From NCBI GenBank assembly GCA_045130275.1, contig JBGUPL010000081.1:1270-65269 (forward strand): 64,000 nt of DNA. The letters run 5' to 3'. Positions 488 to 59,980 of the stretch are shown one piece after another. Origin of the DNA: Bacteroidales bacterium (GTDB lineage: Bacteria > Bacteroidota > Bacteroidia > Bacteroidales > WCHB1-69). The notes under the pieces are model-generated. The model was given only the letters and a program-made list of their open reading frames with translations, did not search any database and was not told the origin of the DNA. Each line of letters starts with the position of its first letter. Within the stretch, counting starts at the first letter, position 1. Both the position numbers and the translations under genes were made by a program.

Positions 488-1150
488 ATGAACGAGGTAA
501 AGGTTATCGAAATCAAAAAAAGCGTCTTTGCAGAGAATGAGAAAGATGCTGATGCTCTTAGAGTTGAATTGAAAAACAAAGGGGTGTGTCTCCTCAATTT
601 GATGTCTGCTCCCGGCAGCGGCAAGACCACCACTCTTATCCAGCTAATTAACAGGATTAAAGACAAAATCCGTGTTTCCGTGATGGAAGCCGACATCGAC
701 AGCGATGTGGATGCGGTGAAAATCAAGGAGGCCACCGGCGTGCCGTCCATCCAGTTGCACACCGGCGGCATGTGCCACCTCGACGCGGAGATGACCCGCC
801 AAGGACTCGACAACCTCGACCTCGAAGAGACCGACCTCGTCATTCTCGAGAATGTCGGCAACCTGGTCTGCCCTGCCGAGTTCGACACCGGCGCCACCTG
901 CAACGCGATGATCCTTTCCGTGCCCGAGGGCGACGACAAACCCCTCAAGTACCCCCTCATGTTCACCGTCTGCGACCTCGTCATCATCAACAAGATGGAC
1001 GTGGTGCCCTACTTCGATTTCGACATCGAACGCTGCAAGAAGAACATCCTCATGCGCAATCCCAACGCGACTATCATCCCCGTCTCCGCCAAAACTGGCG
1101 ACGGCATGGACGCACTCGCCGAATGGTTGCGGGGAAAGCTGCGCTGTTAA
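488..1150 (+). CDS. hypB: hydrogenase nickel-incorporation GTPase HypB
   Basis: P-loop SAPGSGKTT, ENVGNLVCP and NKMD GTPase motifs. Length and overall pattern are typical of HypB. Confidence 0.9.
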   Translation: MNEVKVIEIKKSVFAENEKDADALRVELKNKGVCLLNLMSAPGSGKTTTLIQLINRIKDKIRVSVMEADIDSDVDAVKIKEATGVPSIQLHTGGMCHLDAEMTRQGLDNLDLEETDLVILENVGNLVCPAEFDTGATCNAMILSVPEGDDKPLKYPLMFTVCDLVIINKMDVVPYFDFDIERCKKNILMRNPNATIIPVSAKTGDGMDALAEWLRGKLRC

Positions 1151-1218
1151 TTACTGCGTGTTGATTATTTCATGTTGATTACTGCATGTTAGTTGGTTGA
1201 AGTTAGTTAATTGATGTT
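1148..1218. repeat. left arm of inverted repeat array (units CTGCGTGTTGATTA / TTTCATGTTGATTA)
   Basis: Starts on the hypB stop codon (TAA inside GTTAATTAC). The reverse complement of 1159-1181 matches 1733-1755 at 20 of 23 positions. Confidence 0.8.
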
Positions 1219-1653
1219 ATGAAGATTTATAACTTTGAAGATTTAGTGGTTTGGCAATTGGCAAGGGAACTTGTCAAGGATATTTATGCTCAATTTGCTA
1301 CAAGTAAAGATTATGGCTTCAACAATCAGATTCAGCGAGCAGTGATTTCCATAATGAACAACATTGCAGAGGGATTTGATAGAAGTAAAAATGCAAAAGA
1401 CAATAAACAACTTTTAAGTTACCTGAATACATCTTACGGATCTTGTGGAGAAGTGAAAAGTATGTTGTATGTGGCAGAAGATTTGGAATATATAAATGCT
1501 GAAATAGCCAAATCATTACGCGAACATTGTACTGATTTGTCCATAAAAATTGCCTCATTCATGTCTCATCTCCGCAGCTATGACAGCAACAAAAATAACA
1601 AAAACAACAGCGAAGCTAACCAACAGCCGAAGGCTAACCAACAGCGAAGCTAA
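1219..1653 (+). CDS. four-helix-bundle protein (23S rRNA intervening-sequence protein family)
   Basis: LVVWQLARELVKDIY...IMNNIAEGF...GSCGEVKSMLYVAEDL pattern is typical of this family. The gene is AT-rich compared with its flanks. The last ~25 codons (NKNNKNNSEANQQPKANQQRS) are encoded by the repeat array. Confidence 0.8.
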   Translation: MKIYNFEDLVVWQLARELVKDIYAQFATSKDYGFNNQIQRAVISIMNNIAEGFDRSKNAKDNKQLLSYLNTSYGSCGEVKSMLYVAEDLEYINAEIAKSLREHCTDLSIKIASFMSHLRSYDSNKNNKNNSEANQQPKANQQRS

Positions 1654-1848
1654 TTAACAGCCGCAGGCTAACCAACAGCGAAGCTAATCAACACGAAGTA
1701 AACAACAGCCGAAGGCTAAACAACAGCAAAGCTAACTAACATGAAATAATTAACAGCCGCAGGCTAACCAACAGCGAAGCTAATCAACACGAAGTAAAAA
1801 ACAGCCGCAGGCTCACCAACACGAAGTAATAAACACGAAGTAATAACC
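1585..1848. repeat. right arm of inverted array (units TAACCAACAGCGAAGC, TAACCAACAGCCGAAGGC, TAATCAACACGAAG, TAACTAACATGAAA)
   Basis: Tandem degenerate units of 14-18 bp. Contains an exact 52-bp internal duplication (1651-1702 = 1747-1798). Ends in TAACCGTT immediately before the ATG at 1852. Confidence 0.85.
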
Positions 1849-1851
1849 GTT

Positions 1852-4671
1852 ATGCCTGAAATGTCCACCAAATTTGTCCCGAAACACAAAGGGGACAAGA
1901 ACCCGAACCCCAAGCTTCTCAAGCTGGTTCGTCACATCACCGATCGTATCCCCGGTAAAATCAAGATGGATACCGACGCCCCTGAGTATTGGGGTCTCGC
2001 CTGCATCTTCGAGGACGAGATGGATGCCGTCACCCGTGAGGCCGCTCTGGATCTGATGCTGGATATGCTGCCCGGCAATCCTTTCCGGGTGCGCAAACAT
2101 TGGACCAATGCGCAAATCCACGAGCTGAACAGCCAAAAACATTACACTCCTGACGACAAGTCTTTCGACGAACTTCTGGACCTGATGGCCCGCATGGGAG
2201 TCATGGAGTATGACTATGGCGACAAATACACCAAAGACGGGCCCGTTCCCGGATCTACCTACGAAAGGAAAGACCGCGTGTATTGGGTGCCCATGTTCGT
2301 CCCTGGCAGTGCCGAATACACCAATATGAACGAGGAACTCATGAAGAAACACCCGGAACTGGGCATGTTCTTCGAACGTATGACCTTCCTGCCGTTAGAG
2401 AAGGTCACTCCGATGGTGCCTATGGGCGGTTCCGGTATCGGCATGCACGTGATTCCGGTGGAGAAAGCCATCTCCATGGAGAATCAATCCATTGATATAG
2501 AGCATATTTCATATTGGCTTAAACGCTACGAAGGCCACCTGGCGGTGGGCATCTGCTCCTGCCGTATTGGTCGCAAAGGACTGGATGAAGGCTGCGCCGA
2601 CGATTACCACGATTGGTGTATCGGCGTGGGCGATATGGCGGAGTATCTAGCGGAGACGGGCCGAGGTCACTTCATCACCTACGATGAGTGCATGGCTATC
2701 TTGAAAAAAGCAGAGGATCATGGTTTTGTACACCAAATCACCAATATCGACGGCGAAGGCAAAATCTTCGCCATCTGTAACTGCAACGTCAAGATCTGCA
2801 ATGCGTTGCGTACTTCACAACTCTTTAATACCCCCAACATGAGCCGTAGTGCTTACGTGGCGAAGGTGGATCCGACGAACTGCGTGGCTTGCGGACGTTG
2901 CGTGGAATACTGTCCTGCGGGAGCTGTACGTCTGGGACAGAAACTCTGCACCAAACACGGCGAGCAGACCTACCCGAAACAGGAGCTGCCCGATGCCAAG
3001 AAGTGGGGACCGGAGAAGTGGGACGAGGACTACCGCGACAAGAACCGCATCAACTGCTACCCGACCGGTACGGCACCTTGTAAAACGGCCTGTCCGGCGC
3101 ATATCGCGGTGCAAGGCTATCTGAAGAAAGCGGCCGAAGGCAAATATACGGAGGCGTTGGAACTCATCAAGCGCGAGAACCCGTTCCCGGCGGTCTGCGG
3201 GCGTGTCTGCAACCGTCGCTGCGAGGATGCCTGCACGCGCGGCACCATCGACCAGCCCATCGCCATCGATGCGGTGAAGAAGTTCATTGCAGAGCAGGAT
3301 CTCAAAGCGGAGACCCGCTTCATTCCTGAGGTGAACATTTGTTCCAACGTGAAAGAATTTTGGGATGAGAAGATTGCCATCATCGGCGGCGGCCCTGCCG
3401 GTCTGAGCTGCGCCTACTACCTCGCCACGATGGGCTACAAGCCCACCGTCTTCGAGAAAGACGAGATCCCCGGCGGTATGCTGCAATACGGCATCCCCTC
3501 TTACAAGTTAGACAAAGAAGTCATCAAAGCCGAAATCGACATCATGCGCGAAATCGGTGTGGAGATCCGCACTGGCGTGGAAGTCGGCAAAGACATTACC
3601 ATACAGCAACTTAGAGATCAAGGATACAAGGGCTTTTATGTGGCCATCGGTTGCCAGGGCGGCAAATTGCCCGGCATCACCGGTGAGAATCTGCCCGGAA
3701 CCACCACGGCCATTGATTTCCTGCACAACTGCAATTGCGGCACGAAGGTCAGCGGCAAGGTCGTCGTGGTCGGCGGCGGCAACGTGGCCATCGATGCGGC
3801 GCGGGTCGCCAAGCGCGGCGGTGCCGAGTCCGTCACCATGCTCTCGTTGGAGACCGAAGACATCATGCCCGCCTCCTTGGAGGAGCGCCGCGAGGCCCGC
3901 GAGGACGGCGTGGTCATCAACCCCGGCTGGGGCCCGAAAGAGGTGCTCGGTACCGACAAAGTCACCGGCATCGTCTTCAAGAAATGCACCTCCGTGTATG
4001 ACAAAGACCACCGTTTTTCTCCGCAATATGATGAGGAAGAAACGATTACGCTGGATGCCGACTTGGTCATCTTCGCCATCGGTCAGACGGTCATCCTCAA
4101 GGATCTGCTCAAGGACACGAAAGTGGAGTTCGTGCGCGGCGTCTATCCCGTGGCCGACAAACTGACCTACCAGACCGCCGAAAAGGACATCTTCGTGGGC
4201 GGTGACTGCTTCACCGGTCCGAAGTTCGCCATTGATGCTATCGCCGCCGGCAAGGAGGGCGCCGAATCGTTGCACCGCTACGTACAGCACGGTCACCTCA
4301 CCATAGGTCGCAACCGCCGCGACTTCATCGAGCTCGACAAGGACGACATCGTGGTGGAGAGCTACGACAATTCATCCCGCCAAGTGGAGGGCGTGTCCGA
4401 GCAGGCCGACAAGTTCAAGGAATACACGCTCACGCTTACGGAGGAGCAGGTGCGCACCGAGACATCCCGCTGTCTGAGCTGCGGCGCGTCCGTAGTGGAC
4501 GAAAACCGCTGCATCGGCTGCGGCATCTGCACCACCAAGTGCGCCTTCGACGCCATCCACCTCTTCCGCGACAACCCTGACGCCAGCATCATGCGCACCT
4601 CCGAGGACAAGTTCAGCGGCATTCTGCCGTACATGCTCAAACGAGCCGCGAAGATCGTCTTTAAGAAGTAA
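1852..4671 (+). CDS. multidomain Fe-S / FAD-NAD(P) oxidoreductase (GltD-like core, two ferredoxin-type modules, Cys-rich N-terminal domain)
   Basis: IAIIGGGPAGLSCAYYL dinucleotide fold. GltD-like CPAHIAVQGY...CGRVCNRRCEDAC motif. CxxCxxCxxxCP motifs at CVACGRCVEYCP and CIGCGICTTKC. The N-terminal ~330 aa carry CSCRIG...AICNCNVKIC and belong to no family I recognise. Confidence 0.75.
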   Translation: MPEMSTKFVPKHKGDKNPNPKLLKLVRHITDRIPGKIKMDTDAPEYWGLACIFEDEMDAVTREAALDLMLDMLPGNPFRVRKHWTNAQIHELNSQKHYTPDDKSFDELLDLMARMGVMEYDYGDKYTKDGPVPGSTYERKDRVYWVPMFVPGSAEYTNMNEELMKKHPELGMFFERMTFLPLEKVTPMVPMGGSGIGMHVIPVEKAISMENQSIDIEHISYWLKRYEGHLAVGICSCRIGRKGLDEGCADDYHDWCIGVGDMAEYLAETGRGHFITYDECMAILKKAEDHGFVHQITNIDGEGKIFAICNCNVKICNALRTSQLFNTPNMSRSAYVAKVDPTNCVACGRCVEYCPAGAVRLGQKLCTKHGEQTYPKQELPDAKKWGPEKWDEDYRDKNRINCYPTGTAPCKTACPAHIAVQGYLKKAAEGKYTEALELIKRENPFPAVCGRVCNRRCEDACTRGTIDQPIAIDAVKKFIAEQDLKAETRFIPEVNICSNVKEFWDEKIAIIGGGPAGLSCAYYLATMGYKPTVFEKDEIPGGMLQYGIPSYKLDKEVIKAEIDIMREIGVEIRTGVEVGKDITIQQLRDQGYKGFYVAIGCQGGKLPGITGENLPGTTTAIDFLHNCNCGTKVSGKVVVVGGGNVAIDAARVAKRGGAESVTMLSLETEDIMPASLEERREAREDGVVINPGWGPKEVLGTDKVTGIVFKKCTSVYDKDHRFSPQYDEEETITLDADLVIFAIGQTVILKDLLKDTKVEFVRGVYPVADKLTYQTAEKDIFVGGDCFTGPKFAIDAIAAGKEGAESLHRYVQHGHLTIGRNRRDFIELDKDDIVVESYDNSSRQVEGVSEQADKFKEYTLTLTEEQVRTETSRCLSCGASVVDENRCIGCGICTTKCAFDAIHLFRDNPDASIMRTSEDKFSGILPYMLKRAAKIVFKK

Positions 4672-4678
4672 ATGTCGG

Positions 4679-4873
4679 TGACTGCGTGTTGATTACTACG
4701 TGTTGATTACTGCGTGTTGATTACTGCGTGTTAATTACTGCGTGTTAATTATTGCGTGTTACCAACAGCGAAGCTAACCAACAGCCGAAGGCTAACCAAC
4801 ATGAAATAACTAACACGAAGTAACCAACAGCCGAAGGCTCATCAACAGCCGCTGGCTCACAAACACGAAGTAA
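4679..4873. repeat. ORF-less inverted array: left arm (CTGCGTGTTGATTA)n joined directly to a right arm of TAACCAACA-hairpin units
   Basis: The arm junction is at 4760/4761 (TGCGTGTT|ACCAACAGCGAAGCTAA). The units are reverse complements of one another. Confidence 0.85.
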
Positions 4874-4875
4874 AT

Positions 4876-5223
4876 ATGCACGAATTGGGTATCGTCTTTT
4901 ACATCATCCGGGACGTCAAGAAGGTGGCGGAGGAGAACCACGTGGAGCGGGTCTCCGAAGTGGTTATGGACATCGGGGAAGTCTCCACGGTGGTACCTCA
5001 CCTTCTCACCGACTGCTGGCGCTGGGCCGCCGACAAAGAGGAGCTGCTGAAGGGTTGCGAGCTGAAATGCAACATTATCCCGGCTGTCACCTGGTGCGAC
5101 GACTGCAAACAGGAGTACGAGACGGTGAAACACGGAAAGACGTGCCCCCACTGCCACAGCGAGAATACCTGGTTGCTGCGCGGCAACGAAGTCGAGATTC
5201 GAGAGATAGTAGTTAGTAGTTAG
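4876..5223 (+). CDS. hypA: hydrogenase nickel-insertion protein HypA
   Basis: N-terminal MHELGI and the zinc site CDDC...CPHC. The 115-aa length is typical. Confidence 0.88.
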   Translation: MHELGIVFYIIRDVKKVAEENHVERVSEVVMDIGEVSTVVPHLLTDCWRWAADKEELLKGCELKCNIIPAVTWCDDCKQEYETVKHGKTCPHCHSENTWLLRGNEVEIREIVVSS

Positions 5224-5229
5224 TAGTTA
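5209..5229. repeat. heptad array (GTAGTTA)x3 across the hypA stop codon
   Basis: Three exact 7-bp units. The TAG stop at 5221-5223 lies inside the array. Confidence 0.8.
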
Positions 5230-5263
5230 TGAACGGAAAAATCACATATATTTGAAAAAAGAA

Positions 5264-5420
5264 TTCCTTGAGCAGCCTCGAAGAGGCAAGACGCACGAAG
5301 TGCAAGTAACCCCACACAAGCGACGGAGGAGCGTAGTGTGGGGTTAAGGAAACCCAGAGGCAACACGCACGAAGTGCAATTAACCCTACACAAGGTGAAG
5401 CCGCAGTGTGGGGGGCATGG
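5264..5420. repeat. TTCCTTGAGCAG half-element followed by two tandem ~74-bp hairpin-rich units
   Basis: GCCTC-GAA-GAGGC hairpin, then units starting at 5285 and 5359. Each unit has GCAC-GAA-GTGC plus an 8-bp stem (CCCCACAC...GTGTGGGG and CCCTACAC...GTGTGGGG). Confidence 0.75.
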
Positions 5421-5457: not shown

Positions 5458-6213
5458 ATGTATAAACGTATCCTCATATCAGCCATCGCAGCACTCTGCT
5501 GCCTTGCAACCTTGCCTTGCGCGGCTCAAGTTACCATAAAGTTCAAATCGCTGAAGATCAGTAACGTCACGGATAAAATATGGGAACCCGAGAAGGATCT
5601 CTTTTGTGCGTTCAGACTTCCATCCTATGATCGTGGAGACGTTTATCTCCGTATTGAAGCGGAAATCGTAAACGAGGGTGACACGGCGGTGCCCATTCCC
5701 AGCTTTGATCGCGAAAAGATGATGTTGGTGTATCACAATCCCAACCCTAGAGACAACTCTCTTGCAAACAGCATGGTTAAAAGCAGGTTAGGGGCGATAG
5801 TAAGAGTTTGTGGCATCCTTGAACCCAACTTCCCGCCACATTCGTGCAGGTACAACGATTACTGGGATTTGATCAATGTCAATAGGTTTGACGGTATGCG
5901 CCCGCTGTATTATGTCTCTGCCGCCATACCCACCATGCGTCTCTGCATGGAGGTCCCCGGCCAAGGACTGGTCTATTCCGACGCACCCGAGGAAATCATC
6001 GTCAATGGCCGGAAAATCGACCCCGACTGGCGGAACTTCGACTACTCCGACAACGCCTACCTGCTCGTGAACAACGAACTGATGCGGGAGTTCATGCTCG
6101 AAAACCCGCACCTCTTCGGCAGCACCTTCTCCGAAGACCTGCTAATGAAAGAATTTGTCAGCAATATGGCCTTCACCTACCACTGCTTCCCCATCACCAA
6201 CCCAAACAACTAA
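5458..6213 (+). CDS. secreted hypothetical protein
   Basis: Start moved to the ATG at 5458 (MYKRILISAIAALCCLATLPCAAQ signal peptide), downstream of the promoter box. The stop TAA is the first triplet of a TAACAGCGAAGC repeat unit. Confidence 0.65.
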   Translation: MYKRILISAIAALCCLATLPCAAQVTIKFKSLKISNVTDKIWEPEKDLFCAFRLPSYDRGDVYLRIEAEIVNEGDTAVPIPSFDREKMMLVYHNPNPRDNSLANSMVKSRLGAIVRVCGILEPNFPPHSCRYNDYWDLINVNRFDGMRPLYYVSAAIPTMRLCMEVPGQGLVYSDAPEEIIVNGRKIDPDWRNFDYSDNAYLLVNNELMREFMLENPHLFGSTFSEDLLMKEFVSNMAFTYHCFPITNPNN

Positions 6214-6290
6214 CAGCGAAGCTAACTAACATGAAATAACCAACACGAAGTAATCAACAGCCGAAGGCTAAAAAACACGAAGTAACAAAC
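6211..6290. repeat. right-arm-type unit array (no left arm)
   Basis: TAACAGCGAAGC TAACTAACATGAAA TAACCAACACGAAG TAATCAACAGCCGAAGGC ... Confidence 0.8.
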
Positions 6291-6305
6291 AAAAAAACAA
6301 CGAAT

Positions 6306-6641
6306 ATGTCATGCTTTATCATCCCCATGGCGCAGGCCATCGCCACAAGCGCCTACAGAAAAGCCAACGCGAAAGCGATTGAAAGTTCAGAACACGCACT
6401 CACGCGCAATATCCCGGCGTTAGAGAAGATGCTCTGGGGCGGCACCGTGATGCTCATCGTCGATCACGTCATCAACGGCGAACTCACCTGGCAGTACCCC
6501 TTCTTCACCGCCCTGGAGTCCGGCGGCTTCCCTGTCATGCTCCGCGAACTCCTCACCGTCGGCGTACCCATGTCGCTGGTCCTCACCGCCGTATGGGCTG
6601 TTTGGAGCATTGCCAAAGCCCGCAAAGTCACTGCGTGTTGA
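6306..6641 (+). CDS. small membrane protein, unknown function
   Basis: 111 aa with hydrophobic segments (GGTVMLIVDHVI and VPMSLVLTAVWAVWSI). The stop TGA lies inside the first left-arm repeat unit. Confidence 0.55.
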   Translation: MSCFIIPMAQAIATSAYRKANAKAIESSEHALTRNIPALEKMLWGGTVMLIVDHVINGELTWQYPFFTALESGGFPVMLRELLTVGVPMSLVLTAVWAVWSIAKARKVTAC

Positions 6642-6775
6642 TTACTACGTGTTGATTACTGCGTGTTGATTACTGCGTGTTACCAACAGCGAAGCTAATC
6701 AACATGAAATAACTAACAGCCGAAGGCTAACCAACAGCGAAGCTAACCAACATGAAATAACTAACTTAAATTTTA
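6629..6775. repeat. second ORF-less inverted array
   Basis: Left arm is (CTGCGTGTTGATTA)x3-4 and right arm is TAAYYAACA-hairpin units. It shares the identical 25-nt junction TGCGTGTTACCAACAGCGAAGCTAA with 4753-4777. Confidence 0.85.
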
Positions 6776-6781
6776 ACCGTT

Positions 6782-24330: not shown

Positions 24331-24409
24331 TTGGCTGTTGGCTTTTAGCTATTGGCTTTAAGTATGAATCACTTGCCAACAGCCAATAGCCAACAGCTAA
24401 TAGCCAAAA
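24331..24409. repeat. inverted heptad arms (TTGGCTGTTGGCTTTTAGCTATTGGC ... GCCAACAGCCAATAGCCAACAGCTAATAGCC)
   Basis: Left arm 24331-24356 and right arm 24375-24409 are reverse complements in 7-nt register. The loop is about 18 nt. Confidence 0.8.
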
Positions 24410-33171: not shown

Positions 33172-34182
33172 ATGCTGTTGCTGGCAGCACTGACTTTTTT
33201 TTTTAAGATAACTTTCGCCCAAGATTATCACTTTTCCCAATTTTATGCTAACCCGACAGGTGTGAATCCCGCATTGACGGCAGCTTTCGATGGCGTGGTG
33301 CGTGGTTCTGTCATTATGCGCTCACAATGGCTGGCGGTTTCCAAGCCGTTTATGACGATGGGCGCAGAGGTCGATGGCGCGGTCTATAAGAACCATCGAC
33401 GGCAGGAATTGTTGGGCCTCGGGCTCACGTTCAACGGCGACAAGGCCGGCGATGTGAATTATCGTTCCGTGCAGGCGGTGTTGTCAATGTCGTACATCAA
33501 AAACATTGGCCGCCACAGCCGTCACAAACTCGGACTGGGACTATACGGGGGCATCATCAATAACCATTTTGATGTGGATCCCAGTACATGGGATATGCAG
33601 TTCGTGGATGGTGTTTTCTATCCCTATCTTCCTAGTGGTGAGAATTTTGAGACAATCCAACGACTGTACGCGGATTTCGGCGCGGGAGCGTTTTGGAGCT
33701 TTTTGCCCACCAAGACGGTGCTCTTGCGGGCTGCAGTCAGTGCCTCGCATATCAACCGACCATTCTATGGCTTCGGGGAGAGCAATGCGCGGCTGCCCGT
33801 GAAGTACACCGCCCATTTCTATTCGCAGATTGCTCTTAGTCGCGAAATCTCTTTGTCTCCAATGTTTTACGCTTCCTGGCAACGTTCGCTCAGCGAGTAT
33901 TTGTTCGGATGTAATGTGGAATATTTCAACAAGAAAAACAGCTATACCACGCTTTATACGTTAGGCGGCGGACTCCTTTACCGATGGAATGATGCGCTGA
34001 TTTTCAATGGATTTGTGAGTTGGCAGAATCTCCGCTTCTCCATCGCATACGATGTCAATGTGTCGCCGTTTGTGGTGGCTACGCACGGGCGCGGCGGTCT
34101 GGAAATCGCCGTGTCTTACATTTTCAAGAAGAGGACTATTACGAGGATTGGGAAGGAACCGTGTCCGTATGACATTATGTAA
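33172..34182 (+). CDS. PorP/SprF-family type IX secretion membrane protein (in frame with rarA)
   Basis: Internal ATG at 33172 opens a signal peptide MLLLAALTFFFKITFAQ, followed by the family N-terminal motif DYHFSQFYANPTGVNPALTA. Confidence 0.75.
   Translation: MLLLAALTFFFKITFAQDYHFSQFYANPTGVNPALTAAFDGVVRGSVIMRSQWLAVSKPFMTMGAEVDGAVYKNHRRQELLGLGLTFNGDKAGDVNYRSVQAVLSMSYIKNIGRHSRHKLGLGLYGGIINNHFDVDPSTWDMQFVDGVFYPYLPSGENFETIQRLYADFGAGAFWSFLPTKTVLLRAAVSASHINRPFYGFGESNARLPVKYTAHFYSQIALSREISLSPMFYASWQRSLSEYLFGCNVEYFNKKNSYTTLYTLGGGLLYRWNDALIFNGFVSWQNLRFSIAYDVNVSPFVVATHGRGGLEIAVSYIFKKRTITRIGKEPCPYDIM
33195..33204 (+). repeat. T10 homopolymer in the PorP-like signal peptide codons
   Basis: ACT TTT TTT TTT AAG. 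Either +1 or -1 slippage creates an immediate TAA stop. Confidence 0.9.
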
Positions 34183-34279
34183 TGGTTAATGGTTAAAGGT
34201 TAAAGGTTAATGGTTAAAGGTTAATGGTTAAGGGTTAAGGGTTAAGGGTTAGTGTTTAAGGGTTAATGGTTAAGGGTTA
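34183..34279. repeat. heptad array (GGTTAAW / GGTTAAG)x~13
   Basis: Begins immediately after the TAA stop. Each unit carries TTAA, which places TAA on both strands. Confidence 0.9.
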
Positions 34280-46925: not shown

Positions 46926-46970
46926 CCAACAGCCAACAGCCAATAGCCAATAGCTAATAGCCAACAGCTA
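46926..46970. repeat. heptad array, CCAAYAG flavour
   Basis: CCAACAG CCAACAG CCAATAG CCAATAG CTAATAG CCAACAG CTA. Contains the nadK stop codon. Confidence 0.85.
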
Positions 46971-47834
46971 ATCGTTCCTTTTGTCCAACCCCCACAGCAG
47001 TTTTTCGCGGATGGTGGCGTAGAAGTTGGCGTTGTCGAACAGCACCGTACGGATGGTGAACTGCTCTTTGGTGATGTGCAGTTTGACGTTGTCGTTAAGG
47101 ATAACTCGCTGCGTGTCAACACATAGGGAATATCTTCCGCCGCGCCCTTGCACGGTAATGTCCAATTCTTGCGATGCCGGGATGACTAATGGGCGGACGC
47201 TGAGCGAGTGGGACGCGATAGGGGTGAGCACTACCACGTCGGTCTGCGGGTGCAGGATGGGGCCGCCGCAGCTCATCGAGTAGGCCGTCGAGCCCGTCGG
47301 GGTGGCCACAATCAGACCGTCGGCCCAATAAGTGTTGATGTGCTGTCCGCCGGTTGAGACGGAGATGGCGTTGATGGAGTCGCTGTCGGTGGCACGGATG
47401 GTCACGTCGTTCACTACGAAGTGTGTGTCCAAGGACAGGGGCTCGCTGCCCTCGATGTGGAGCAGCGAGCGCGATTCCAAGGTGTATTGTTGATTGAGAA
47501 GCATGCGTATGCAAGCTTCAAAGTTGTCTTTTTTGATGGCTGACAAAAAGCCAACGCGCCCAGTATTGATGCCCACCAAGGGGATTCCGAGGTCGCCGAT
47601 TAAGTTGGCGGCGTCGATGAACGAGCCGTCACCCCCAATGGAAATCATAAAGTCCACATTGCCAATATGTTGCAGGTCCAAATATGACTCAAATCGCTGA
47701 ATTTCAGTGTTTTGGCATGAAATATTATTGTGCGCCATCACCCTGCAACAGTTTTTTTGCAAAAGGGCGACGACCGAGTCGATAAGGGTCTGCGGTCCGG
47801 CACCGGGACGGCTGTAGAGCGCGAACGTGAGCAT
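46968..47834 (-). CDS. nadK: NAD+ kinase
   Basis: Start set at MLTFALYS (TAATG overlap with the buk stop). Motifs GGDGSF and ATPTGSTAYSMSCGGP. Confidence 0.88.
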   Translation of the reverse strand: MLTFALYSRPGAGPQTLIDSVVALLQKNCCRVMAHNNISCQNTEIQRFESYLDLQHIGNVDFMISIGGDGSFIDAANLIGDLGIPLVGINTGRVGFLSAIKKDNFEACIRMLLNQQYTLESRSLLHIEGSEPLSLDTHFVVNDVTIRATDSDSINAISVSTGGQHINTYWADGLIVATPTGSTAYSMSCGGPILHPQTDVVVLTPIASHSLSVRPLVIPASQELDITVQGRGGRYSLCVDTQRVILNDNVKLHITKEQFTIRTVLFDNANFYATIREKLLWGLDKRND

Positions 47835-57682: not shown

Positions 57683-57765
57683 AAATGGTTAACGTTTTCT
57701 ATTCACCGCTGCAAATGTACACTTTATTCGGGAATTTTCGACATTCTTTTGATTATTCTTGAATA

Positions 57766-57831
57766 GGCAAAAGGCAAAAGGCAAAAGGCAATAGGCAACT
57801 GCCAACAGCTAACAGCCAACAGCCAATAGCC
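57766..57831. repeat. heptad array switching flavour (GGCAAAA x3 > GGCAATA > GCCAACA/GCTAACA x4)
   Basis: Continuous 7-bp register. Its right part encodes the last residues and the stop codon of dcp. Confidence 0.85.
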
Positions 57832-59851: not shown

Positions 59852-59858
59852 TTTTTAA

Positions 59859-59922
59859 AGGTTAATGGTTAATGGTTAAAGGTTAAAGGTTAATGGTTAA
59901 AGGTTAATGGTTAAAGGTTATT
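59859..59922. repeat. heptad array (GGTTAAW)x8, ending GGTTATTGAAGC
   Basis: Same flavour as 34183-34279. Confidence 0.9.
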
Positions 59923-59946
59923 GAAGCCTGATTGCTTTTCTCTTTT

Positions 59947-59980
59947 CACTGCTCACTAATCACTAATCACTAATCATCAC
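59947..59980. repeat. heptad array (CACTAAT)x3-4
   Basis: CACTGCT CACTAAT CACTAAT CACTAAT CATCAC. Confidence 0.8.

Follow-up and report, generated by a model that had tools for sequence, protein, structure and literature searches.

In a window of 64,000 nt from a Bacteroidales genome (contig C81:1270-65269 of genome G000, which comprises 3.19 Mb in 134 contigs with 50.6% G+C), the spacer between an oxidoreductase gene and hypA was found to consist wholly of repeats. With moderate confidence, this spacer of 204 nt (4672-4875), which extends from the oxidoreductase stop codon to the hypA start codon, is regarded as a gene-less, hypervariable, genus-specific inverted minisatellite that is tolerated at an operon junction and is the homology partner of a gene-bearing cassette. 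The cassette is located between hypB and the oxidoreductase gene and contains a four-helix-bundle gene of family PF05635. Both genes adjoining the spacer are on the + strand, and the setting is a hydrogenase-maturation operon. The array is related to the arms of the cassette, it is present or absent at the same junction in relatives with exact direct repeats at its ends, its copy number is hypervariable and its polarity fixed. No strand-specific advantage in folding was detected, and in the congener G019 the four-helix-bundle gene occupies the very same site.

The repeat family, designated here 'AACA + G-N-A mini-hairpin' units, occupies gene junctions. Its units of 14, 16 or 18 nt are arranged in tandem and are composed of the core YMAYYAACA and a stem of 2-4 bp round a 3-nt loop, mostly GAA. 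In the spacer all right units fit this definition and all left units fit it as reverse complements; a T/G-rich arm ('u') is followed by an A/C-rich arm ('A') with a TGTT...AACA centre, and the space from stop to start is filled. The left arm contains one degenerate unit, five 14-nt units and one cut unit, in agreement with the about six units counted in a first-pass annotation of this DNA, and on the opposite strand these units read as A-type units with AC-GCA-GT or AC-GTA-GT mini-hairpins. Each right unit consists of the core and a small palindrome round a 3-nt loop, the mini-hairpins of the arm being AGC-GAA-GCT, AGCC-GAA-GGCT (twice), AT-GAA-AT, AC-GAA-GT (twice) and AGCC-GCT-GGCT. Behind the right arm, TAAAT is followed by the ATG of hypA. 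Tandem Repeats Finder (TRF) delimited a left array at 4681-4760 (period 14, 5.7 copies, 93% matches) and a right array at 4761-4849 (5.6 copies, 74% matches). The two arms abut directly, as had been annotated, one base downstream of the position first proposed (4760/4761). The junction string CTGCGTGTTACCAACAGCGAAGCTAA is common to a second gene-less array of the operon (6629-6781) and to the orthologous arrays of the genomes G057 and G058; the perfect palindrome TGTTAACA forms the centre of most other family members.

That the arms are reverse complementary, another early claim, was confirmed by local alignment. The left arm aligned to the reverse complement of the right arm with a score of 43, whereas 1000 shuffled right arms averaged 14.3 and never exceeded 31; controls with the direct and the reversed-only sequence scored 9 and 10, respectively. 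Aligning the 14-nt left units to each right unit of 16-18 nt takes a gap of 2 nt. The degenerate first unit, ATGTCGGTGA, has counterparts in G057 (ATGTTGGTGA), G012 (ATGTTAGTGA) and the metagenome allele L047 (ATATTGGTGA), and its TAAATG opens a mini open reading frame (ORF) of six codons (ATG TCG GTG ACT GCG TGT TGA).

The spacer was also described initially as containing nothing else, and this holds. Between the arms there is no ORF, with 2-7 stops per frame on both strands. At Rfam gathering thresholds a tRNA alone was matched in the window, which has no rRNA hit, and the spacer gave no match. No sigma-70-like promoter and no intrinsic terminator were detected in a scan of both strands of 4300-5300, and the Bacteroidetes -7 motif TAnnTTTG has no match in 4600-4900. 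A G+C-rich stem followed by a T-run is not present either; the T-poor right arm leads into AAATATG. Possible Rho utilisation through the C-rich right arm and possible translational coupling by mini-ORFs were considered and set aside.

Features of the oxidoreductase-hypA spacer and of related loci in the window
Feature	Position	Strand	Sequence or evidence
Gene-bearing cassette, between hypB and oxidoreductase gene	1148-1851	+	arm alignments
Four-helix-bundle gene (PF05635) inside the cassette	1219-1653	+	Pfam E = 2e-28
Oxidoreductase gene, 939 aa, Fe-S/FAD (GltD-like)	1852-4671	+	TAA stop 4669-4671
9-nt direct repeat, left copy, over last oxidoreductase codons and TAA stop	4665-4673	+	GAAGTAAAT
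Degenerate first left-arm unit	4672-4681	+	ATGTCGGTGA
Left arm, T/G-rich	4682-4761	+	five 14-nt units CTRCGTGTTRATTA and cut sixth
Left unit	4682	+	CTGCGTGTTGATTA
Left unit	4696	+	CTACGTGTTGATTA
Left unit	4710	+	CTGCGTGTTGATTA
Left units	4724 and 4738	+	CTGCGTGTTAATTA
Cut left unit	4752-4761	+	TTGCGTGTTA
Arm junction	4758-4768		TGTT-ACC-AACA; arms abut at 4761/4762
Right arm, A/C-rich	4762-4870	+	seven units of 13-18 nt
Right unit	4762	+	CCAACAGCGAAGC
Right unit	4775	+	TAACCAACAGCCGAAGGC
Right unit	4793	+	TAACCAACATGAAA
Right unit	4807	+	TAACTAACACGAAG
Right unit	4821	+	TAACCAACAGCCGAAGGC
Right unit	4839	+	TCATCAACAGCCGCTGGC
Right unit	4857	+	TCACAAACACGAAG
9-nt direct repeat, right copy, native -1 to -9 context of hypA start	4867-4875	+	GAAGTAAAT
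hypA, 115 aa, intact, directly downstream of array	4876-5223	+	Pfam HypA E = 3e-31
One-sided A-type array of the same family, leader of 111-aa gene	6196-6291	+	
Second gene-less inverted array of the operon, p111-p363 junction	6629-6781	+	alignment to 4681-4777

Alignment of the spacer with the arms of the cassette, proposed as a check on the initial annotation, placed both in the same repeat family. The left arms are identical in 39 of 45 positions and the right arms in 93 of 114, with scores far above those of shuffled sequences in both cases. The array is closer to the second gene-less array of the operon (119/140 identical) than to the cassette arms, and these two arrays, located at 4681-4777 and 6629-6781, have 53 identical nucleotides of the left arm plus the junction string in common. 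A close orthologue of the four-helix-bundle gene (at least 73% identity) is present in eight of 55 genomes of the genus, as a single copy and always in the hyp operon. It is invariably enclosed by a T/G and an A/C arm, but at three different junctions: between hypB and the oxidoreductase gene in G000, G057, G058 and G012, between the oxidoreductase gene and hypA in G019, and between the operon genes p111 and p363 in G005, G017 and the second copy of the operon in G002. The gene-less inverted arrays of the G000 operon occupy exactly the two junctions that hold the gene in other species, the one at 6630-6752 corresponding to the site of the gene in G005, G017 and the second G002 copy. The cassettes of G000 and G019, located at different junctions, have the inner part of the left arm in common, at about 32 of 37 nt by visual count, whereas its outer part is not shared, which fits an exchange by recombination within the arrays.

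The first-pass annotation had seen in the spacer a cassette without its ORF. Kinship with the cassette stands, but derivation from a gene-bearing form is not supported. About 20 arrays are present in G000 versus one copy of the gene, the unit pattern was detected in 24 of the 55 genomes versus eight with the close orthologue, and 16 array-positive genomes are without the gene. In the centre of the array, neither a remnant of the ORF nor any of the conserved inner flanks of the gene was detected. Since arrays are commoner than the gene and no remnant is left, descent may have run in either direction. The array is thus shown to be a gene-less relative of the cassette, but not to be the scar of a lost gene.

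Several observations concern the ends of genes next to the arrays. The last approximately 30 codons of the four-helix-bundle ORF (1570-1653), past Pfam residue 111, stem from the right-arm array (…NKNNKNNSEANQQPKANQQRS). As the array encodes this end of the ORF, the annotated C-terminus of the protein is repeat-derived. Similarly, hypB (stop codon at 1148-1150) and the 111-aa gene (stop codon at 6639-6641) end inside the first left-arm unit of the respective arrays. Recent copying of the G000 left arm from the array at the p111-p363 junction was considered and rejected, because G057 and G058 have the same arm type and junction between oxidoreductase gene and hypA. The arrays at 4672-4875 and at the p111-p363 junction are older paralogous copies.

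The oxidoreductase-hypA junction was compared among relatives, which are given as genomes (G-numbers) or as metagenome alleles (L046-L050 and L053; L047 is Ga0310691_10000248). In G018, G005 and the metagenome contigs L050 and L053 the two genes are separated by 2-6 nt (TAAATATG, TAAAAATG, TAACTATG). Repeat-free spacers of 11 nt and 37 nt are present in G003 and G016, respectively, and an unrelated GAA-loop hairpin element in G002, G021 and G017. Orthologous arrays that agree with that of G000 in left-arm type and junction were found in G057 (2 left and at least 15 right units, more than 337 nt), in G058 (4+4 units, 127 nt) and in L047 (3+7 units, 162 nt). Arrays with a different left-arm unit occur in G012 (2+12 units, 236 nt), L046/L049 (10+13 units, 385 nt), L048 and the second operon copy of G002 (G002b), and this G012-type allele spans 2+12 to 10+13 units. 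In G019, finally, the array has the four-helix-bundle gene, 94% identical, in its centre.

The end points of the array are exact. In the empty alleles (G018/L052) the sequence is AAGAAGTAAATATGCACGAA, identical to the window with 4674-4875 taken out, and deleting one copy of the direct repeat GAAGTAAAT together with everything between the copies yields exactly the empty allele of G018. With these repeats at its flanks, an insertion preserves the context of the stop codon and the 9 nt ahead of the hypA start. Within the junction, the number of units changes much faster than the bases. Between G000 and L047, no substitution was found in 4677-4956, the right arms are identical in 113 of 113 nt, and the only difference is an indel of 42 nt (three units) in the left arm; over the 470 nt before this block, in the oxidoreductase gene, divergence is about 7%. 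When G057 is included, the same block shows 0-1 substitutions, yet the array is 162, 204 or more than 337 nt long. Over the first 81 nt of hypA, array-bearing alleles show 0-4 differences and empty ones 15-18. There are thus two hypA 5' haplotypes according to the state of the array, indicating that array and hypA 5' end travel as one recombined block.

Two further observations were made at these junctions. G002 harbors two diverged copies of the hypB-oxidoreductase-hypA operon (L021, G002:C9; L030, G002:C113), the hypA genes of which are 96% and 85% identical to that of G000. One copy has spacers resembling repetitive extragenic palindromes (REP), the other has AACA arrays and the four-helix-bundle gene; contamination (5%) or transfer of a second copy may account for this. 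Where AACA arrays are missing in congeners, the junctions hypB-oxidoreductase, oxidoreductase-hypA and p111-p363 (of G002, G018, G017 and G021; L021, L023, L024, L026) often contain another element, consisting of GAA-loop hairpins (CAGCCCCGAAGGGGC, GCGCGAAGCGC, CCCCACAC...GTGTGGGG) followed by CTCGGTAG. This element looks REP-like and is also found in the window downstream of hypA (5264-5420).

Throughout the family the mini-hairpin is a regular feature. A Watson-Crick stem of 2-4 bp with a 3-nt loop is present in 184 of 197 units, and the loop is GAA in 149 of these, GCA in 17 and GTA in six, with G-N-A loops amounting to 172. The stems are AC/GT, AT/AT, AGC/GCT or AGCC/GGCT; pairing is thus preserved although they vary in sequence and length. 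Clusters of at least three units were detected 21 times in G000, nine of them gene-less inverted arrays, one the right arm of the cassette and 11 one-sided. Ten arrays are therefore inverted when the cassette is counted with the nine gene-less ones. Of the 11 one-sided arrays, at least nine have an A/C-rich sense strand and are located directly upstream of a start codon. Among all tandem arrays of G000 (1023 after merging, mainly with periods of 7, 14 and 21), 73% of those in leaders just upstream of start codons are likewise A/C-rich on the sense strand.

The family is restricted in its distribution. A pattern for unit dimers, AACAGCGAAGCTNAYYAACA, was found in 24 of the 55 genomes of the genus, with 40 hits in G000, 36 in G012 and 61 in G057, and none for the reversed pattern used as control; it was not detected in any of 297 genomes from 207 other genera of the order. 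Arrays cluster by operon, as seen at four junctions of the hyp operon and in 14 kb of contig 14 of G057 with seven arrays. In all of the approximately 30 inverted arrays seen (G000, nine congeners and four metagenome contigs) the T/G arm precedes the A/C arm, irrespective of whether the junction is co-directional, convergent or divergent. As this layout is its own reverse complement, common descent explains the polarity without functional constraint. Uniform polarity also speaks for a defined element that was copied and against slippage having acted at every site independently. In the literature on intergenic GCGAAGC repeats and on Bacteroidales four-helix-bundle or intervening sequence (IVS) genes with inverted repeats, the family was not found described.

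Long arrays of the family are known from other places as well. In G057:C14:49000-66500 (L043), two arrays of 600-700 nt (5+30 and 7+34 units) are located at convergent gene ends. Two contigs of G000, at C102:15769-15954 and C103:1-113, end or begin within long ACGAAGT-type arrays, which probably break the assembly there. The window contains additional heptamer arrays at 24331-24407, 34180-34279, 46926-46972, 57765-57831 and 59855-59976.

Folding had been suggested as a test of the initial view that the spacer forms one long imperfect hairpin of about 190 nt, and this view holds weakly. As RNA, the + strand folds with -54.1 kcal/mol (z = -1.72), and 13 of 200 dinucleotide shuffles were equal or better. 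As DNA, the + strand reaches z = -2.33, with two of 200 shuffles as good. The - strand RNA folds with -66.3 kcal/mol (z = -3.47), a value matched by none of 200 shuffles. On the antisense strand, which folds better, A.C mismatches of the + strand turn into G.U pairs. In 14 inverted arrays of the family, z-scores based on 50 shuffles each ranged from -1.7 to -8.5, the better strand being sense in six and antisense in eight, and the sense fold of 4672-4875 is the weakest of all. A terminator or processing site, as considered at first, therefore receives no support from folding, and a terminator-like T-run is missing. Between close alleles, left arms of 2-10 units are combined with right arms of 4-15 or more, often of different unit types, which limits pairing to helices of 9-12 bp split by bulged mini-hairpins. 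The lack of a strand-specific folding advantage together with the variable arms favours an origin at the DNA level over a selected mRNA structure. A hairpin in the oxidoreductase-hypA mRNA would then be a by-product, presumably neutral for expression.

Similar arrangements were found at other loci. Six of the seven other PF05635 genes in G000 are bracketed by inverted arrays (C121:93031, C110:32231, C133:39585, C85:84515, C26:2275 and C103:23704), each of a different heptamer family, and these families rank among the most abundant heptamers of the genome. Inverted pairs of neighbouring TRF arrays have either gaps of 3-25 nt (nine pairs, gene-less) or of 382-858 nt (nine pairs, six of which hold a PF05635 gene), and seven of the nine gene-less pairs belong to one of the families bracketing PF05635 genes. 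One such pair, TTGGCTA/GCCAACA, is located in the window at 24331-24407 and belongs to the family bracketing the C110 gene. For a second PF05635 paralogue (L061-L076, orthologues of G000:C110:32216-32575), the arms are mirror images in 16 of 16 congeners, a count based on comparing each arm with its own partner and with a direct control, the cross-genome arm matrix being confounded by conserved flanking genes. The unit family of these arms varies by lineage (GCCAACA-type, the ACTTAG hexamer, ATGAACT/ATGACT or TTGACR). As mirror images are kept while the unit family changes, the arms co-evolve, which could be brought about by quasi-palindrome template switching, by conversion from arm to arm or by recognition through the encoded protein. 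Most of these loci also contain, between left arm and gene, a motif like TTTTGTATTTTTGCAAA, which resembles the Bacteroidetes -7 promoter element; should it act as a promoter, no single transcript contains both arms at these loci.

How far do other explanations account for the array? It could act in the RNA, as an imperfect hairpin between cistrons that is cut by RNase III or serves as stabiliser or barrier and thereby uncouples or tunes hypA. In a variant of this explanation, stop and start at the base of the stem might preserve coupling by termination and reinitiation. Genes on the + strand on both sides and the spacers of 2-6 nt in relatives place the array inside an operon transcript, the stop codon lies 8 nt ahead of the array and the start codon directly after the closing TAAAT, and all 14 inverted arrays tested outfold their shuffles. 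Moreover, among described elements the IVS of Coxiella is most closely related to the gene-bearing form, and RNase III excises it at a stem of 28 bp which consists in part of tandem heptamers (PMC4990558). Nevertheless, a role of this kind is considered unlikely. The sense fold is marginal and surpassed by the antisense fold, the family has no preference for the sense strand, and the unequal arms with mixed unit types form short, bulged helices. Arrays also occur at convergent junctions and between divergent genes, and at the second four-helix-bundle locus a conserved motif inside the left arm, a putative promoter of the Bacteroidetes type, would mean that the arms do not share a transcript. 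A literal solo form, left behind when the four-helix-bundle gene was deleted from a cassette like that of G019, is improbable and the least expected of the explanations. G019 does carry the gene at this junction, and the unusual centre TGTT-ACC-AACA, in place of the perfect palindrome TGTTAACA of most members, resembles what comes after the end of the gene in G005 and G019 (AAAACCAACAGCG / AAAACCAACGCG) and might mark the joint of a deletion. However, the inner flanks of the gene (GTTAGTTGGTT...GATGTT upstream, AACAAAAAYAACAAAA downstream) are absent, and the same junction string in the array between p111 and p363 marks it as a copied feature. Arrays greatly outnumber copies of the gene, and few congeners are as distant at this locus as G019 (hypA 80%, oxidoreductase 86% identical), no closer relative having the gene at the junction.

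A further explanation is that the units are DNA or RNA binding sites for the ring-forming four-helix-bundle protein, the gene-less arrays representing extra sites or non-autonomous partners, comparable to REP doublets forming hairpins (REPINs) and their REP-associated tyrosine transposases (RAYTs). Several observations are consistent with this. The unit pattern is present in all eight genomes with the close orthologue versus 16 of 47 without it (hypergeometric p = 6e-4, uncorrected for kinship), and the four array-richest genomes all carry the gene. The bracketing of six of seven other paralogues by their own heptamer families, the membership of most gene-less inverted pairs in those families, and the arms of the second paralogue, which remained mirror images in spite of a changed unit family, point in the same direction. 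By extension, each PF05635 paralogue would own one repeat family, with one gene-bearing and several gene-less arrays as cognate sites in DNA or operon mRNA, in a relationship like that of REPIN and RAYT or of operator and regulator. Binding by the protein is nonetheless doubtful, and its extension to all paralogues is doubtful to the same degree. The 16 array-positive genomes without the gene include G008 with ten hits and G060 with seven, the association of gene and arrays is confounded by phylogeny, template switching at quasi-palindromes can produce co-variation of arms without a protein, and abundant families are a priori the likeliest flanks of any gene. In addition, the S23p protein of Coxiella is probably not made in vivo (Warrier et al., PMC4990558).

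For the inverted minisatellite favoured here, the following course of events can be envisaged. Each arm would be a tandem array growing and shrinking by replication slippage, probably aided by the very stable mini-hairpins that the units could form in single-stranded DNA. The arms would remain mirror images round the TGTT/AACA centre owing to the descent of all copies from a single quasi-palindromic founder, and template switching or gene conversion, between arms as well as between neighbouring arrays of the operon, would add to the symmetry. Located exactly between stop and start and bounded by the 9-nt direct repeat, the array could be lost precisely, with no change to the stop context or to the part of the leader next to the start. 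The operon may tolerate it because it has stops in all frames and turns an A/C-rich arm towards the downstream start, as do most leader arrays of G000. Finally, arrays of the family could provide the homology by which the single-copy four-helix-bundle gene is exchanged, with inner arm segments, between operon junctions. We infer slippage, template switching, relocation of the gene by recombination and neutrality for expression from comparison of the sequences.

A number of points weigh against this interpretation. Slippage and template switching are deduced from patterns. The 9-nt direct repeat at the flanks of the array, which might be read as the target-site duplication of a miniature inverted-repeat transposable element, is indistinguishable from homology between unit and native gene end, and it may be just the last unit (ACGAAGTAA) resembling that end (AAGAAGTAA). 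The identity of right arm and first 81 nt of hypA between G000 and L047, read here as a recent exchange of haplotypes, would equally be expected if the array were under purifying selection. The A/C-rich sense strand of at least nine of 11 one-sided arrays and of 73% of leader arrays suggests selection on leader composition, and hence some function. The hairpin may have a role in processing or stability of the mRNA or in translation of hypA. No enzyme for the spread was identified; an association with a transposase did not turn up, without a systematic search having been made.

Several known types of repeat have features in common with the array. Mycobacterial interspersed repetitive units (MIRU) are minisatellite-like tandem repeats located in operons between a stop and the next start, with copy-number variation at the strain level and little harm to the operon. 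The array shares position and copy-number variation with MIRU; these, however, are direct repeats of 46-100 bp with small ORFs for translational coupling, are not inverted and lack mini-hairpin units. BOX elements of Streptococcus pneumoniae and the REP family, including bacterial interspersed mosaic elements (BIMEs) and REPINs, are modular intergenic repeats with variable internal modules and hairpin potential, and in REPIN-RAYT systems many gene-less copies exist alongside a single gene flanked by inverted copies. Unlike the single palindromes of REP/BIME-REPIN (about 20-40 nt), the units described here are in tandem within each arm, and the partner gene encodes a four-helix-bundle protein of unknown function. 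Linked to the family, only PF05635 and no RAYT or other transposase turned up, although no search was aimed at RAYT. Cutting by RNase III is known for Correia elements. Lineage-specific, abundant and copy-number-variable intergenic tandem arrays are also represented by the cyanobacterial short tandemly repeated repetitive (STRR) sequences, the G-rich heptamers of Xanthomonas and Nostoc (PMC4692102) and the TAACTGA repeats of Beggiatoaceae (PMC4679880). Those are mostly one-directional simple heptamers, whereas here units composed of a 9-nt core and a mini-hairpin form two arrays head to head.

Closest to the gene-bearing form are the IVSs in 23S rRNA of Coxiella burnetii and Leptospira, with a gene of the S23p/PF05635 type as cargo in the loop. 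The IVS in helix 45 of the C. burnetii 23S rRNA has terminal inverted repeats including tandem short repeats in strain-variable number (Warrier et al. 2016, PMC4990558). For the IVS as for the array family, origin and mobility are unexplained and an interpretation as selfish elements has been proposed. Whereas the IVS is inserted in a helix (25 or 45) of 23S rRNA, the array occupies the mRNA spacer of two protein genes and has no ORF; instead of the 28-bp stem at which RNase III excises the IVS (PMC4990558), it has long arms of six and seven mini-hairpin units of 14-18 nt each. The mini-hairpin itself is familiar, since d(GCGAAGC), more generally d(GCGNAGC), is described as extraordinarily stable in DNA (review PMC13037366). 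The motif is contained, exactly or extended (AGC-GAA-GCT, AGCC-GAA-GGCT), in most units of 16 and 18 nt. It is described as a biophysical object and occasional genomic motif, and is not known to have been reported as an interspersed repeat family.

New is the series of empty site, array and array with gene at one and the same position with exact end points, the variation in unit number at the strain level, and the linked haplotype block. To find all three states at one junction is rare for the poorly understood four-helix-bundle cassettes of the IVS type, whose movement and whose filled and empty sites are hardly documented. In this family, repeat arms exist, spread and vary independently, and their centre is occupied by the gene only occasionally and in a single copy. 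The question is thereby no longer how the cassette moves, but how mirror-image minisatellites arise and are maintained at gene junctions and for what reason the gene resides in them. In practical terms, the arrays serve as length markers at the strain level, and they are a likely source of assembly breaks and mis-called C-terminal extensions in metagenome-assembled genomes of rumen Bacteroidales. Should the arrays bind the four-helix-bundle protein after all, an orphan family found in many phyla would gain a function, and if each paralogue owned a repeat family, there would be an explanation for the orphan '23S rRNA IVS protein' family as well as for the intergenic tandem repeats specific to single lineages.

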